Source of the DNA: an uncultured Veillonellaceae bacterium
GTDB lineage: Bacteria > Bacillota > Negativicutes > JARBTT01
Assembly: GCA_963805085.1 (NCBI GenBank)
Contig: CAWDTA010000002.1
Coordinates: forward strand, 1,376,001-1,440,000
Direction of reading: 5' to 3'
DNA: 64,000 bases
Below are positions 6,322-63,310 of this stretch, one piece after another (position 1 is the first letter of the stretch; the number at the start of each line of letters is the position of its first letter). The translations under genes and the position numbers were made by a program. Below the pieces are notes generated by a model. The model saw only the letters and a list, made by a program, of their open reading frames with translations. It had not been told where the DNA came from and did not search any database.

Positions 6322-6402
6322 AAAAACACCTGCTAAATTTTGTATAAAACTAGCAGGTGTTTTAAGTTTTTATGAGAATATCTAACTTTAATATCAAAAA
6401 GA
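6322..6402 (+). repeat. Co-oriented intergenic repeat, copy 1
   Basis: AAACACCTGCTA..TAGCAGGTGTTTT hairpin plus TTTTATGAGAATAT..TTTAATATCAAAAAG tail. Confidence 0.85.
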
Positions 6403-6601
6403 TAGTGCCTACCATGATAAAAGAAAAATGACTCCACCCATTCCTTTTGATTGTGAATAATATGACGAATTTCTTTCGTTATAAGAGAACAAACTAAGGA
6501 ACGGTTCATCGTGGATAAGACGAAACTATTATGTTTGAAGGATGAGGCTACAAACATTTTCAATAGTTGAACTTAAATATATTATACAAGGAGTGATTAC
6601 T

Positions 6602-7987
6602 TTGGAATATCGCATTGAAAAAGATTCTATTGGAGAAATTAATGTACCTGTTGATAAATTATGGGGAGCCCAGACACAACGTAGTTATGAAAATTTCCAA
6701 ATTGGAACCGAGAAAATACCAATAGAATTGGTTCGCATATTTGCTACATTAAAATGGGCTGCGGCTAATGTGAATAAGGAATTAGAATTGCTCGATGAAG
6801 TTAGGGCGGATGCCATTATAAAAGCTTGTAATGAAATCAAAGAGGGAAAATTAGATGAGCATTTTCCTTTGGCTGTATGGCAAACCGGCAGTGGGACACA
6901 GTTTAATATGAACGTTAATGAGGTAATCGCACATCGTGCAACACAAATATTAGAAGAAGAGGGAAAACATAGTGCCATTCATCCTAACGATCATGTGAAC
7001 CGTTCACAAAGTTCAAATGATATATTTCCAACGTCACTTCATGTTGTAGGATTAACGCTAATAAAAAAGGATCTATTCCCAGCAATAGATGGCTTGATCG
7101 ATACATTGGAAGATAAGTCACAAAAATTTATGCAGATTGTAAAAATTGGACGAACCCATCTAATGGATGCTACTCCGCTCACTTTAGGACAAGAAATGAG
7201 TGGTTGGGTTAGCATGTTAAAACGTAACAAAGAAATGATCAGTGCTGGTATTGAATTTTTGCGTGATTTAGCAATGGGTGGGACAGCTGTAGGCACAGGG
7301 ATAAATACACACCCAGATTTTGCTGTAAAAGTTGCGAATGAAATTAGTGAACTAACAAAAGAGAAGTTTCAAACAGCTCCCAATAAATTTCAAGCTTTGT
7401 CCAGTAAAGATGAGCTTGTAGCTGTTCATGGGTTGCTGAAAGCTTTAGCAGCGGATCTTATGAAAATTGCCAATGATGTACGATGGCTAGCCAGCGGGCC
7501 ACGCTGTGGAATTGGTGAAATCACCATTCCAGCAAATGAGCCAGGAAGCTCAATTATGCCATCAAAGGTAAACCCTACACAAGCGGAAGCATTAACCATG
7601 GTTGTTACTCAAGTTTTTGGTAATGATACAACAATCAGCTTTGCTGCTAGCCAAGGAAACTTTCAATTAAATGTATTTATGCCTGTCATAGCATATAACT
7701 TAATTCAAAGTATAAGATTATTGAGTGATAGTATAAATTCATTTAACCATAACTGTGCTGTTGGTATCGAACCAAATCTTCCAACAATAAATCTTCACTT
7801 GAATCAATCATTGATTTTAATTACAGGGCTAGTCCCTTTAATTGGCTATGATAAATCAGCCGAAATTGCTAAAAAAGCAGCAAAAGAGGGAATCACCCTG
7901 AAAGAGTCTGCGTTATCATTAGGCTATGTAAATGAAACGGAGTATGACCGTTACATGGATCTAAATCACCTGATAAAGCCTGAATAA
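6602..7987 (+). CDS. fumC: Class II fumarate hydratase
   Basis: [39 protein letters not shown] start after AGGAG. Confidence 0.95.
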
Positions 7988-8076
7988 TTATGCGTGGTGT
8001 TCTTAGGAGAGTAATGAATATAGATAGCATTAAATCCTATTGAGTGCTCGAATAGAGGCATTAACATATAAAGTTT

Positions 8077-8131
8077 AAAGCTCCTGCTAAATCCCAGATG
8101 AATTTGGCAGGAGCTTTACTTATATGAAAAT
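8077..8131 (+). repeat. Co-oriented intergenic repeat, copy 2
   Basis: AAAGCTCCTGCTAAAT..ATGAATTTGGCAGGAGCTTT plus CTTATATGAAAAT. Confidence 0.85.
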
Positions 8132-8176
8132 TCAATAACTATTTCGATTTGTCCAGGGCACATCCCCTTGTTATAG

Positions 8177-9655
8177 TCAGGTACCGCAAAAAGTTTTGTA
8201 AGGGCAGTTGGATAATGCGGGCGGTGTGGTGTATTCAGCCTGCTCAGGGGAGTGGGCATAAGGAGTTGAAAGAACTTTAAGCAGTCGATGCATTACGCTG
8301 TAATCACCTTGTTTTACTGCGGCTTCAAGAGCCGCTTCTACCCGGTGGTTTCGAGGGATGATCGCAGGATTGTTGCTTTGCATCCACTGCTGTGAGACAT
8401 TTCTTGGTTCTGCCTGTCTGTCTAGCCTTGCTTTCCATTGTGCATGCCACTGAGAAAAATCCGCGGAGTCAAACAGATCCGTGTCTTCTAGTAGATTAAA
8501 AGTTAATGCGCGGAAGGTATTTGTATAGTCCGCACGATGTTCTTTCATTATACGGAGGAGGTTTTCAATGAGTACCTCATCTTGCGTTTCTTCGTTAAAT
8601 AGTCCTAGTTTGCCTCTCATTCCTGCTAGCCAATGATCGTGGAATAATCTAGTAAAATCTGCAATGGCCGATTCAGCAAGTTTAACAGCCTGTTCTTGAT
8701 TGGCATCTAGTAATGGCAGTAAGGTTTCTGCAAATCGTGCGAGATTCCAAGCGGCAATATCTGGTTGATTGCCATAGGCATAGCGGCCACGCTTGTCAAT
8801 GGAGCTGAATACCGTTGCTGGATCGTAGCTATCCATAAAGGCGCAAGGCCCATAATCGATGGTTTCTCCACTGAGTGCCATATTATCGGTGTTCATTACT
8901 CCATGAATGAAGCCAACCAATTGCCATTGGGCAATCAATGCAGCCTGTCGTTTGACCACTTCTTGAAGTAGGAAAAAGTATGGGTTTTCAGCGGCATCCG
9001 CGCCGGAAAAATGCCTTCCTAAGGTGTAATCAGCCAGGATACGCAGATCCAGAACAGTGCCCCAATTGGCAGCGTATTGAAAGGTACCGACGCGCAGATG
9101 ACTGGCAGCTATGCGGGTTAGAATTGCACCAGATTGCTCGGTTTCTCGGATGACCGCATCACCGGTTGTCACCACCGCTAGGCTACGGGTCGTAGGGATA
9201 CCAAGCGCATACATTGCTTCGCTAATGATGTATTCACGGAGCATCGGCCCAAGGGCTGCACGTCCATCACCACCGCGTGAGTAGGGTGTTCTGCCTGATC
9301 CTTTGAGCCCAATGTCGACCCGCTCGCCTAAAGGCGTGATCTGTTCACCAAGTAGTAGTGCCCGTCCGTCCCCTAACATGGTAAAATGACCAAATTGATG
9401 ACCAGCATAAGCCTGAGCAAGAGGCAAAGCCCCTTCAGGAACTTGATTGCCAGCAAACACCGCTATGCTAGCATTGCTTTGTAACGATAGGGCATCTAAT
9501 CCTAGTGATATAGCCAAGGAATCATTGAGAATGATCAACTCTGGTGAGCGTACGGGATTCAGGTTAAGCGTGGTAAAAAATAATTTTGGGAGACGGGCAT
9601 AACTATTGTCGAAGTTCCAACTTGTTTCGGAGCTTGTATTGTTCTTTGTCGTCAT
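8177..9655 (-). CDS. selO: Protein adenylyltransferase SelO (YdiU family)
   Basis: [38 protein letters not shown]-terminal TFCGT. Confidence 0.95.
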
Positions 9656-61536: not shown

Positions 61537-61725
61537 ATTGAGTTCCTCCTTGAATATTAATATTGATAGGAATATAATTATTTTGTCTTTCTTAATGATA
61601 ATTATGCATGGAAATTTATTAAAGTACAAAAATATATTTGCTAAGATAAAAGTTCAGGGGTAGTTTTCGGAAACACCGTCCCTGATTGTTTATTAGAGTC
61701 CCAGCGTATCAGAGGAGAATTTACA

Positions 61726-62163
61726 ATGATGAAACAAAATTTAAAAATAGGAAATATCCCCGCAATTTTATGGGGCGAAAAATCAGATATGTTATTCGTA
61801 GTGGTTCATGGTAATATGTCAAATAAGGCAGACGATGCGATTGTTGTATTTGCAGGAGAAGCAACCCCAATAGGCTATCAAGTGCTTAGTTTCGATCTGC
61901 CTGAACATGGTGATCGTAAGGATGAAGACTATCCTTGTAAAGTTCAAAACTGTGTGCAAGATCTTAATGTCATTATGTGTTATGCACGATCATTATCAAA
62001 TAAAATAAGTTTATTTGCTTGTAGTATGGGGGCATATTTTTGCCTATTAGCATATAATCATGAGCCGTTCAAACAGTGTTTGTTTCTCTCTCCTGTAGTA
62101 AATATGGAACGTATGTCCCTAGCCGTTCCAGAATATAGGGACAATCTGTCCCTTCGTCCATGA
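61726..62163 (+). pseudogene. C-terminally truncated alpha/beta hydrolase
   Basis: HGNMSNK, SFDLPEHG, ACSMG; hydrolase-like sequence stops at VVNMER where the GGGAC palindrome begins. Confidence 0.75.
62113..62160 (+). mobile_element. Collapsed RAYT/REP end remnant
   Basis: TGTCCC..GAATATAG-GGGACAATCTGTCCCTTCGTCC matches the right end at 19116-19142/20803-20820. Confidence 0.6.
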
Positions 62164-62166
62164 ACT

Positions 62167-62979
62167 TTATTCCTCGATAAATCGTGTCAATTCCTTGTTA
62201 AATTTATCGCACTCATCATAAAATAATCCGTGCCCGCTGTATTTGAACGGAACGAGCTTGGAGCTTCTAATTCCTTCATTTTGTGCAATAGCCAATGGAA
62301 ATAAACAAACTTTATCATGGATACCATGAAGAATTAAAGTGGGAACGTGTATTTTTTCAAGATCAGAAAATAGCTCTTCGTCTATCCAAGCGGCTGAAAC
62401 CGCTGCGGTGGACCAGCCTGCCGCTTGTAGTCCCATTTGGAAGAACCAATCTGAGAAGGCCTGGGATACATGTTGAAAAAAGAATGTGTCTCCAAATTCA
62501 CGCAACATTTCTGGACGGTCATTATTTGTTCCTTGAATGATTTTAATTACATCTTCTTTTTTTAGTCCATGAGGAAAATATGGTCGCTGAATAAGACTGG
62601 GAGCCGCAGCTGCAAACAGGGCAAGCTTGGATACTCCGTATCCCTTGTGACGGGTCATATAGCGAACAGCAATCGCTCCCCCCGTGGAATGTCCCCCGAG
62701 AGTGAAATCTTGCAAATCAAGTGCTTTGACCACACAGTGAATATCGTCTGTTGAGGTATCGTAGTCGTAGCCCCTCCAAGGCTTATCGGAGTTACCGAAC
62801 CCCCGAGAGTCAATTCCTATACAGCGATATCCCATCTTAGGCAGCTGATCGAACTGATATTCAAACATCCTATGGTCTGCCGGCCACCCGTGTATAAACA
62901 AGATTGTTCTCTTACCCTCTGGGTTAATGTCTTCTACATAAATCTTTACGTTTGGTTCTACTTTAATATAGAATCCCAC
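62167..62979 (-). CDS. Alpha/beta hydrolase (non-heme haloperoxidase-like)
   Basis: FIHGWP, DSRGFGNS, GHSTGG, HGIHD, SGHG. Confidence 0.92.
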   Translation of the reverse strand: MGFYIKVEPNVKIYVEDINPEGKRTILFIHGWPADHRMFEYQFDQLPKMGYRCIGIDSRGFGNSDKPWRGYDYDTSTDDIHCVVKALDLQDFTLGGHSTGGAIAVRYMTRHKGYGVSKLALFAAAAPSLIQRPYFPHGLKKEDVIKIIQGTNNDRPEMLREFGDTFFFQHVSQAFSDWFFQMGLQAAGWSTAAVSAAWIDEELFSDLEKIHVPTLILHGIHDKVCLFPLAIAQNEGIRSSKLVPFKYSGHGLFYDECDKFNKELTRFIEE

Positions 62980-63166
62980 ATACAGCCCTCCTCTAAATCA
63001 AAATCTTTACATATTACGTTATGCACTTAGTACTATAGTGTGAAACTCGGTGATGAGGCGTTTTTGTGCCATACTATTGAGGTTGGACTGGTGGCGTTGC
63101 CTTAATATTGCTTTATTTTTGATGTTTAATGAGATGCCGAGCCAAGTCTACAATGGTAATATCGAT

Positions 63167-63310
63167 AAATAGAACATAAATACTAAAAAAGAAACTCCTA
63201 CTGAATTCCGTATGAATTTGGCAAGAGTTTTGAGCTTTTATGAGAATATCTAAGTTTAATAGTTAAAAAGCCGATGGCGAGGTGACAGAAAAGAAACGTC
63301 CCCGACCGTC
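63167..63310 (+). repeat. Co-oriented intergenic repeat, last copy
   Basis: AAATAGAACATAAA..AAACTCCTACTGAATTCCGTATGAATTTGGCAAGAGTTTTGAGCTTTTATGAGAATA..GGTGACAGAAAAGAAACGTCCCCGACCGTC. Confidence 0.92.

Follow-up and report, generated by a model that had tools for sequence, protein, structure and literature searches.

The window analyzed here is a stretch of 64,000 nt (G000:C2:1376001-1440000) from an uncultured Veillonellaceae bacterium whose genome, G000, has a size of ~4.2 Mb (4.21 Mb) and whose contigs are named C1, C2 etc. It covers the left part of a chromosomal array located at C2:1,382-1,479 kb, a part that is older and decaying. In this array, unrelated modules of 1-4 genes are each closed by a conserved and strand-specific composite element, hereafter called the junction repeat, that ends in the right end of a Y1 transposon. 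We infer that these junctions are where modules are gained, lost and moved, in the manner of cassettes. The array is not an integron: it has neither an intI gene, nor sites with the anatomy of attC, nor promoterless and co-oriented cassettes.

Distribution of the Junction Repeats

Junction repeats were searched for with a two-round nhmmer profile seeded with 10 copies from the window. The element has a length of ~155 nt, and its profile gave 78 matches in the whole genome, corresponding to 73 distinct loci, with 22 + strand matches within the window. A large majority of these loci are clustered: 47 are found within C2:1,382-1,479 kb (97 kb), where their median spacing is 1,345 nt, five others are outliers of this array (C2:1,512-1,527 kb) and 21 are located elsewhere on C2, C3, C4 and C5. 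Taken together, 52 of the 73 loci (71%) are packed into 145 kb (C2:1,382-1,527 kb), i.e. 3.4% of the genome, compared to 21 in the remaining 4.07 Mb, which corresponds to a ~70-fold enrichment in density. The family was also recovered by an independent de novo repeat search (groups D1-D7, 7-15 copies each). Furthermore, the hairpin-arm motif of the repeat (≤3 mismatches) has 28 matches in the window compared to 2.77 expected, a number reached by 0 of 100 shuffles, and the tail motif has six matches compared to 0.00 expected. An earlier note on this DNA, made from the sequence alone, had described the region as a gene-accretion hotspot and called for a genome-wide profile scan of repeat density and strand. 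The scan revealed a strong clustering as well as a strict strand preference (63/63 copies of at least 35 bits on the leading strand, see below), and the plasticity is borne out by the 52 clustered loci, by the presence of an array at this locus in G004, a genome belonging to another family, and by the fact that most of the content was not found in a genome of the same genus (G001).

The copies of the window are more degenerate than the other ones, most of them being 76-87% identical to the consensus, compared to 83-98% for the copies of C2:1,427-1,478 kb, many of which are full length. Truncated repeats are common and include head-only, hairpin-only, head and hairpin, and mid block and tail fragments, with varying cut points. 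A search of the window and of the 60 kb to its right against Rfam at gathering thresholds found 0 families, and the junction repeat is therefore no described RNA.

Structure of the Junction Repeat

Alignments of full copies revealed four blocks, i.e. a head, a hairpin, a mid block and a tail. The head is centred on AATAGAATATAAAC, with a weaker conservation ~15 nt further upstream. The hairpin has a stem of 15-18 bp, in which 5 of 15 pairs show compensatory changes, and a loop that is nearly invariant across copies. Two positions of the hairpin are G-U or U-G in 22-23 of 29 copies and, because of these wobble pairs, the stem is continuous only on the + strand. For the three copies that were folded as single-stranded DNA (ssDNA), the + strand is more stable than the - strand by 0.8-3.6 kcal/mol. 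Judged by the compensatory changes, the retained wobble pairs and the loop, the hairpin is under selection. With its stem containing G+C, the T run on its 3′ side and an upstream open reading frame (ORF) that is co-oriented in 36 of 46 cases, it looks like a transcription terminator; a terminator scan flags it in three of the seven repeats scanned.

The mid block contains ATGAGAATATGTAAG and forms, together with the 3′ arm of the hairpin, a promoter-like TTGGCA-18-GAGAAT in all seven repeats scanned (7/7), promoter-like sites being overall no commoner than in shuffles (38 vs 34.3). Tails are of two types. The A-type tail reads GACGGAAAAGGAACGTCCCC-nnn-TGTC, its last part being ...CGTCCCC-nnn-TGTC, and the B-type tail, ~100 nt long, extends to GGGACAGGGAACCTGTCCCCTTGTCCC. 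Inspection of the consensus and of the folds indicates that head and tail do not pair and that the single internal hairpin is the only strong stem; inspection of the consensus also found no GTTRRRY or RYYYAAC boxes at the edges of the repeat. When full copies are aligned with their flanks, neither inverted ends nor target duplication is found. A small peptide encoded by the mid block and the tail was considered as well and excluded, as single-base indels between copies break the frame in the alignment.

Relationship of the Tail with TIRYT Transposons

The genome of G000 contains 24 matches to PF01797 (Y1 HUH transposase). Five of them are identical IS200-type genes (C2:238493-238987 and four further places) and ~17 are genes encoding proteins of 250-317 aa, belonging to several subfamilies, with a Y1 domain and a C-terminal helix-turn-helix (HTH). 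For two representatives of the latter, the top NCBIfam match is the REP-associated tyrosine transposase NF047646 (75.6 and 73.5 bits, for a cut-off of 80). Each of these ~17 genes is flanked by inverted repeats of ~35 nt. A Y1 gene between inverted repeats is the layout of TIRtrons, which encode TIRYT transposases (Di Nocera et al. 2013, PMC3733652), and Y1 genes with a C-terminal HTH constitute subclass 2.1 of Quentin et al. 2018 (bioRxiv 10.1101/279083).

The A-type tail is matched by the 3′ flank of one TIRYT subfamily (C2:1948639, 1951287 and 2044258), two members of which (C2:1948639 and C2:1951287) are 100% identical and only 2.6 kb apart. The alignment of this tail with the 3′ flank of the TIRYT gene C2:1948639 has 27 identities out of 32 and a score of 39, compared to a maximum of 28 in shuffles (n = 300). 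In total, the 20-nt A-type tail motif occurs 19 times, always on the leading strand, with 14 occurrences in the array zone and three at TIRYT 3′ ends. In B-type tails, right ends from at least two other TIRYT subfamilies are stacked in the same orientation: the far end of these tails is the right end of the subfamily found at C2:248250, and their middle matches that of a third subfamily, which was identified in G004. The same terminal inverted repeat (TIR) flanks the closest named TIRYT homologues, which come from Pelosinus records, and this alone places the organism near Pelosinus, within the Negativicutes. In addition, the last 8-11 nt are duplicated in tandem in 8 of 23 A-type tails, and ends of TIRYT elements also carry terminal tandem duplications, both in G000 and in a Pelosinus record. 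The GGGGWSAS motif given in the accessible text of PMC3733652 is fitted by the far end of the B-type tail (GGGGACAG), and the A-type sequence (GGGGACGT) is off at one position. The junction repeat ends, in its tail, with the terminal repeat that TIRYT-type Y1 (HUH) transposons have at their right end, and these transposons are present in many copies; the lead towards HUH elements given in the earlier note was a productive one.

The possibility that the mid block derives from the 3′ end of a TIRYT coding sequence was excluded, as alignment scores exceeded those of shuffles for the 32-nt tail alone. No similarity to the repeat was detected in the 700-nt flanks of the one IS200-type copy that was scanned (C2:238493; nhmmer --max, E up to 10). 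Left-end, i.e. inverted, TIRs were searched for at module starts over 97 kb, which gave 16 left-end matches, none of them recurrent at module starts. Two of these matches belong to a pair of small TIR elements. On both sides of an FMN-reductase gene (23178-23834), ~518 nt are duplicated at 98-100% identity (window 22035-22552 and 23879-24396), and each duplicate holds an element of ~240 nt (22048..22290 and 23892..24133) between left-type and right-type TIRYT terminal repeats. These ~240-nt elements look like miniature, gene-less TIRtrons. Inspection of three loci (C2:248250, C2:548250 and G004 L034) also showed that TIRYT left ends lie ~0-30 nt downstream of a terminator-like hairpin. By analogy with group IIC introns, TIRtrons may target hairpins.

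Orientation of Repeats and Genes

GC skew is strong in G000 and its sign changes near C2:0.8 Mb. All the junction repeats scoring at least 35 bits in the whole genome (63/63) are on the leading strand, and the four - strand copies of C4, where the GC skew is negative, are also leading-strand. As had been noted before, all copies of the window are on the + strand: no independent - strand junction repeat was found in it, the pattern matches and the one nhmmer match on this strand (14099-14149) being the palindromic hairpin that matches itself. Ten repeats of the array even keep the + orientation despite a - strand gene upstream. All 24 PF01797 matches have the leading-strand orientation too, and one further partial TIRYT match (C2:712995) is on the lagging strand.

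This co-orientation is no polarity specific to the array: all copies of the genome and two dispersed repeat families follow the leading strand. The latter two families have a length of ~190 nt (C2:1350005-1350197, 20 copies, and C2:1478944-1479135, 15 copies); they are likewise leading-strand (20/20 and 14/15 copies) but dispersed. Both are also multi-copy in G001 and G004. The second one, for which no Rfam match was found, lies directly beyond the last repeat of the array. Genes behave differently. Genome-wide, 1327 of the 1583 ORFs of at least 300 aa (84%) are on the leading strand, whereas, among the 81 ORFs of at least 90 aa of the array, 50 are on the + strand and 31 (38%) on the opposite strand. 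Therefore, since repeats are equally biased elsewhere, the array is unusual in its gene orientation and not in its repeat orientation.

Content of the Modules

The 46 intervals between successive repeats mostly have a simple content: 23 contain one ORF, seven contain none, seven contain two, six contain three or four and three contain seven to nine. The ORF upstream of the repeat is on the + strand in 36 of these 46 cases, which extends to the whole array what had been reported for the window, so that the last gene of a module tends to have the orientation of the repeat. The pairs of neighbours around repeats are (+,+) in 18 cases, (+,-) in 17, (-,+) in eight and (-,-) in two. Among the 27 + strand ORFs that follow a repeat, nine start at 60 nt or less from it.

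The cargo consists of unrelated accessory functions. It includes an aspartase/fumarase, SelO, GGDEF and HD-GYP proteins, a hybrid histidine kinase, an ion channel, an esterase, a phenolic acid decarboxylase (PAD) with PadR, an amidase, an FMN reductase, an SMP-30 lactonase, a GH26 protein, an aldehyde dehydrogenase, a glyoxalase, a chloramphenicol acetyltransferase (CAT), two methyltransferases and several GNATs. This profile resembles that of sedentary chromosomal integrons, CAT and glyoxalase/bleomycin-resistance families being typical of integron cassettes. Here, single-gene modules encode a protein of the chloramphenicol-acetyltransferase family (C2:1456441-1457118) and one of the glyoxalase/bleomycin-resistance family (window 27975-28442).

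The absence of intI from the window and its surroundings, already noted from the sequence, is confirmed by a genome-wide domain scan: PF00589 (tyrosine recombinase) has three matches only (C5:313363, C2:942668 and C4:2593), the nearest being ~430 kb from the array, and the two genome matches of PF00239 are both far from it. The idea of a recombinase linked to the array was not upheld, none being found in or beside it. A recombinase carried by the cassettes themselves was sought by comparing 196 ORFs located within or near repeat loci with each other (all-against-all BLASTP) and rejected, no family recurring with the repeats; this comparison gave only small groups of paralogues (PAD/PadR, a pair of regulator and flavodoxin-like proteins, insertion sequence (IS) transposases) and spurious ORFs crossing the repeats.

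The left flank of the array encodes a histidine kinase, a GNAT-cNMP protein, a PIN-PhoH protein and a permease. Its right flank carries a polyketide synthase/non-ribosomal peptide synthetase (PKS/NRPS) cluster followed by IS transposases. As read from the sequence, this PKS/NRPS-type cluster (C2:1479453-1508459) includes ORFs of 2155 aa and 4953 aa, together with a hydrolase, a methyltransferase, an MFS transporter and a 957-aa ketosynthase (KS)-thioesterase protein.

Comparison with Related Genomes

The repeat family was found in 19 of 41 genomes (40 relatives and G000) by BLAST of one copy, and in 21 of 151 genomes (150 genomes of the class and G000) with a covariance model (R1). Copy numbers in relatives are mostly low, and co-oriented clusters are present in several genera. 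In G004, the core flanks are 73-77% identical at the nucleotide level and collinear with the left flank of the G000 array, showing that both arrays occupy the same chromosomal locus. In this genome, the genes HK (histidine kinase)-SelO-VTT-273aa-amidase-DUF188 are contiguous, and G000 carries between them [zinc-finger gene, repeat, aspartase, repeat] and [repeat, GGDEF, repeat, esterase/PAD/PadR, repeat]. By inspection, the two corresponding empty sites of G004 hold one degenerate head and hairpin, or the hairpin alone. A cassette encoding a 427-aa protein is flanked by repeats in both G000 and G004, with a nucleotide identity of 91%. In G004, it begins directly after TGTC, and its right edge differs between the two genomes by a deletion ending inside the head. 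In a tree, repeats from G004 and G001 are interspersed among those of G000, and the identity of some G004 repeats to the consensus (92-93%) exceeds that of the core flanks.

The second genome compared in detail, G001, belongs to the same genus (~95% identity) and is 84% complete, in 280 contigs. It contains positions 5709-11904 of the window and parts of 53958-63093. The region from 11.9 to 54 kb of the window was not found in this 84% complete genome, except for 431 nt at 93%, ~410 nt at 73% and 128 nt at 85% identity, and C2:1,440-1,480 kb is represented there only by repeats and by pieces at 77-79% identity. As controls, 68% of the 20 kb to the left of the array was found in G001 and the region to the right of the array (1,530-1,550 kb) is mostly absent from it, which means that the variable zone reaches that far. 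On contig C26 of G001, the two-gene module of 2 kb that follows copy 56328 in G000 (56475-58516) is missing, and the same head, hairpin and mid block are joined to another tail. Furthermore, a module that we call Y (62163-63093; one 270-aa ORF on the - strand) occupies, together with its downstream repeat, a different position of the array in G001, where another module lies on either side of it. Module Y starts directly after a tail in G000 as well as in G001, and these tails are of different types.

Additional data come from public sequencing runs. In four of their contig sets compared with 10 kb, the same cassettes are present at 90-99% identity and end in repeats or are joined through them; since contigs break at repeats, the order of cassettes cannot be read from them. 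None of the runs holds more than 0.19 of the sampled words, and there is no RNA run among those listed.

Overall, the content of the array is hypervariable at a conserved locus and the differences between genomes are bounded by junction repeats. This last point agrees with the expectation that repeats delimit gene differences, which G000, G001 and G004 illustrate. No case was seen, among these three genomes, of a repeat present or absent between unchanged neighbour genes, the differences involving a module and a repeat together. The question had also been raised whether breakpoints fall at a fixed base of the repeat. They do so at the left edge of modules, which is sharp and directly follows the TGTC of the tail, but not at the other breakpoints, which vary.

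Origin of the Array

The reading that we favor, tentatively and at somewhat less than even odds, is that the junction elements are recombination sites used in trans by Y1 (TIRYT) transposases. In such a scenario, the tail would be the site of action, and TIRYT transposases encoded elsewhere in the genome would cut the + strand, i.e. the lagging-strand template that would be transiently single-stranded, after TGTC. Two cuts at successive tails would release an ssDNA circle made of one module and one junction element. The reverse reaction would insert this circle behind a resident tail, and repeated insertions behind tails would generate a co-oriented row. The head, the hairpin and the mid block would insulate each module, by stopping upstream transcription and perhaps by starting transcription for the next gene. 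This trans-acting reading is favored because three subfamilies contribute stacked right ends that all have one orientation, because terminal duplications are shared and because the left edge of modules is sharp. A broader proposal would be that the integron principle was invented a second time independently, in the form of a cassette bank of diderm Firmicutes in which TIRYT HUH Y1 proteins act in trans on the ssDNA of replication forks, and in which the composite junction element also supplies the terminator and promoter of each cassette. We regard this proposal as possible but rather doubtful.

Several observations weigh against an action of TIRYT proteins in trans. Concerning the enzyme, the domain scan of the genome and the inspection of flanking ORFs found no recombinase gene in or beside the array, and neither the accessible text of PMC3733652 nor that of bioRxiv 10.1101/279083 reports any biochemical activity of a TIRYT. 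The array of G004 has A-type tails, yet the best match to the A-type TIRYT in this genome is only 40% identical, two other types being present; G001, which is 84% complete, shows a single, distant TIRYT. Concerning the site, TIRYT elements contain nothing that corresponds to the 117 nt of head, hairpin and mid block, the match to the TIR being confined to the 32-nt tail, and the strand bias does not single out the array, being common to other dispersed repeats (20/20 and 14/15). Finally, no fixed base marks the right edge of modules, truncations, which affect many copies, fall at various positions, and the difference between G000 and G001 at 56,475 needs at least two events under a simple insertion model.

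Alternatively, the repeats could be portable stretches of homology (~117 nt, 85-98% identity) as well as terminators: RecA-dependent recombination between co-oriented repeats would delete modules, double crossovers would add or replace them and the tails would be mere passengers. Repeats are long and similar enough for this, those of the right half of the array being 83-98% identical to the consensus, and the variable position of breakpoints within the repeat, the frequency of fragmentary copies and the lack of a nearby recombinase all fit. So does the finding that the same head, hairpin and mid block are followed by one tail in G000 and by another in G001, the outcome expected from a crossover inside the repeat, and the near-identical, repeat-bounded cassettes of the contigs from other public runs can be read in the same way. 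However, recombination by RecA leaves the most peculiar features of the junctions unexplained, i.e. the right-end transposon repeats of three subfamilies stacked in one orientation, the 8-11-nt terminal duplications common with TIRYT elements, the sharp left edge of modules after TGTC and the arrival of the first repeats behind unrelated genes. We consider this explanation rather unlikely.

Another explanation is that the repeats do not move genes at all. They would then be small non-autonomous elements moved by a Y1 protein, like miniature inverted-repeat transposable elements (MITEs), repetitive extragenic palindromic (REP) sequences or TIR repeats, inserting strand-specifically behind genes and hopping locally in a region that is plastic for other reasons. 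The genome does have other strand-biased families of small repeats and many Y1 transposases, low-copy members of the family occur in several families of the class (21/151 genomes), and the copies favor the 3′ side of + genes and convergent gaps, as REPs and MITEs do. Dimers or clusters of TIRs are moreover reported for TIRYTs in the accessible text of PMC3733652. Nevertheless, the differences that were seen always involve a module and a repeat together, with no gain or loss of a repeat alone, and the same cassette is flanked by repeats in two genomes of different families. In addition, this explanation accommodates poorly a ~70-fold enrichment at one locus that recurs at the same locus in G004, as well as an element devoid of inverted ends and of target duplication. 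It thus appears unlikely.

Lastly, a remnant of integron, i.e. a cluster of attC sites lacking integron-integrase (CALIN) whose integrase was lost or is encoded elsewhere, is very improbable: although co-oriented sites separate mostly single-gene modules with an integron-like cargo and CALINs without intI are common, some of them being in Firmicutes according to the accessible text of PMC4889954, no tyrosine recombinase lies within ~430 kb (three PF00589 matches genome-wide), the ends of the repeat are not complementary, its only strong stem being the internal hairpin of 15-18 bp, its consensus has no GTTRRRY/RYYYAAC edge boxes, 31 of 81 ORFs are on the opposite strand and the tail is homologous to the end of a Y1 transposon.

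Repeats and Insertion Sequences of the Window

The individual repeats of the window, all on the + strand, are given here with their nhmmer score and, where indicated, with the positions matched on the junction repeat profile. In the left part, the copy 6300-6441 (profile 12-154, 75 bits) is near full length with a degenerate tail, 8065-8131 (profile 19-93, 38 bits) consists of head and hairpin only, 12062-12181 (profile 9-128, 91 bits) has a decayed tail, and 14072-14173 (profile 5-110, 58 bits) and 16702-16805 (profile 11-116, 58 bits) are devoid of tail. A weak extra copy, absent from the earlier note, was detected at 26490-26571 (profile 47-132, 22 bits, E 2.6e-4). It is followed by a hairpin-only copy (27672-27731; profile 32-91, 40 bits) and by three junction repeats, at 27746-27874 (profile 5-134, 81 bits), 28450-28551 (profile 6-108, 93 bits), with an ORF start 31 nt downstream, and 35609-35724 (profile 3-118, 91 bits).

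The middle of the window contains several fragments: another hairpin-only copy (36825-36888; profile 23-83, 44 bits), a half hairpin (37206-37252; profile 45-91, 41 bits), a head-only fragment identified by the de novo repeat search (37759-37794; head motif with 1 mismatch at 37770) and two copies reduced to mid block and tail (40227-40301; profile 82-156, 55 bits, and 41479-41547; profile 87-155, 40 bits). Between them, the junction repeat 39161-39291 (profile 7-152, 91 bits) has an A-type tail, as also shown by the tail motif. Further right, pair counts show that the hairpin of the copy 48141-48275 (profile 10-148, 80 bits) is preserved by compensatory changes. Then come the junction repeat 50023-50131 (profile 27-147, 64 bits), a copy without head and 5′ arm (50612-50718; profile 42-148, 87 bits) and a junction repeat whose alignment reveals a B-type tail (51812-51950; 124 bits), with an ORF start 35 nt downstream.

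Three full junction repeats with an A-type tail are found in the right part: 52968-53113 (107 bits; tail motif), 56328-56474 (133 bits) and 63159-63310 (135 bits), the last one being followed, 19 nt downstream, by a ribosome binding site and a GTG start. A head-only fragment (59840-59852), recognized by its head motif and by comparison with G001, precedes the module 59857-61177; at this site, G001 has a head, a hairpin and part of a mid block. Similarly, the tail-only fragment found by the de novo repeat search directly 3′ of a + strand stop codon (61168-61214) corresponds to a fuller copy in G001. Compared with this inventory, 24 of the 25 repeat positions previously listed are supported, 21 by nhmmer within ~70 nt and three as head-only or tail-only fragments, and the position 59004 is not. 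Copies do exist near the listed positions 39097 and 51748 but start ~65-70 nt downstream, at 39161 and 51812. Among the ORFs said to follow a repeat almost directly, those of 28582, 51985 and 63329 do so, 19-35 nt after the repeat, while the ORF after the 27746 copy starts at 27975 and not at 27878.

Sequence comparison also revealed an IS1182-like IS of 1.67 kb inside the array (window 19117-20822, - strand), with two other copies in the genome (C2:551172-552838 and C2:1517554-1519236). Its transposase, which has 519 aa when intact, is split into ORFs of 311 aa and 217 aa in the window. The copy at C2:1517554 interrupts a B-type junction repeat. In addition, a two-ORF element of 1.6 kb is present twice in G000 (C2:1470823-1472417 and C1:313548-315147) and at 94% identity in G004 (C7:2194417-2196011). 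At C2:1470823, it sits right after a truncated junction repeat (C2:1470696). This 1.6-kb piece was excluded as a cassette shared by G000 and G004, as it is multi-copy and also on C1; it is probably an IS.

Comparison with Known Systems

To our knowledge, among platforms for the stockpiling and shuffling of single genes, only integrons are well understood so far. The locus described here has the architecture, hypervariability and cargo profile of a sedentary chromosomal integron, with different sites and without integrase. If the link between tail and TIRYT is functional, TIRYTs, for which the accessible text of PMC3733652 and of bioRxiv 10.1101/279083 reports neither a transposition mechanism nor a cellular role, would gain a role; it would also imply a new, single-strand and HUH-based route of cassette exchange and a gene reservoir of Negativicutes that is invisible to current integron finders. 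Even if RecA alone were responsible, a portable terminator-and-homology module organizing a 100-kb bank of accessory genes at a locus that is conserved would be a useful model for how plasticity zones are built. A literature search on integron-like, HUH, cassette and TIRYT topics, leaving aside the supplementary TIR lists of the TIRYT papers, which possibly cover related organisms, found no description of such an array.

Among known HUH elements, the TIRtrons/TIRYTs and REPtrons/RAYTs (REP-associated tyrosine transposases; PMC3733652; bioRxiv 10.1101/279083) are the closest by their ends: TIRYT elements of G000 itself have the tail found in the array as their terminal repeat, the published GGGGWSAS is present in reverse complement at the far end of the B-type tail and the proteins have the C-terminal HTH of subclass 2.1. 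However, in the accessible text of these sources, TIR and REP families are short and occur as single copies, dimers or clusters, not being described as boundaries of modules, whereas the array holds only the right-end orientation, fused to the 117 nt of head, hairpin and mid block and concentrated in one hypervariable locus. The junction repeat also recalls IS200/IS605 elements and palindrome-associated transposable elements (PATEs) by its strict replication orientation, its lack of inverted ends and of target duplication, its hairpin and the presence of the Y1 HUH family in the genome. Unlike them, it has one strong hairpin instead of one at each end and it bounds modules, and it shows no similarity with the flanks of the one IS200-type copy scanned. 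The pdif modules of Acinetobacter plasmids are also gene modules located between short sites used by a recombinase encoded elsewhere, without any integron. Nevertheless, pdif are XerC/D sites of 28 bp carried in alternating orientation by plasmids, whereas the sites of the array are 155 nt long, chromosomal, in one orientation and related to Y1 ends.

According to the accessible text of PMC4889954, complete integrons were not found in Firmicutes, and the host of the array is a Firmicute of the Negativicutes type. The likeness with sedentary chromosomal integrons and CALINs is extensive. It includes a long chromosomal row of co-oriented repeats of ~100-150 nt separating mostly single-gene modules (here 47 copies in 97 kb, with one ORF in 23 of 46 modules), a content that varies strongly between close relatives, repeats that are homogeneous within the array, a cargo rich in acetyltransferases, CAT and glyoxalase-type proteins, and sites with a strand-specific hairpin. 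As concluded previously from the sequence, it is nevertheless not a classical integron: the array has no IntI, and its repeat lacks an R/L box palindrome spanning the site and ends in the terminal repeat of a Y1 transposon. Moreover, integrons rely on a single Pc promoter for promoterless and co-oriented cassettes, whereas each repeat of the array has a terminator-like hairpin and a promoter-like site (the latter in 7/7 repeats scanned), and 31 of its 81 ORFs (38%) are on the opposite strand.

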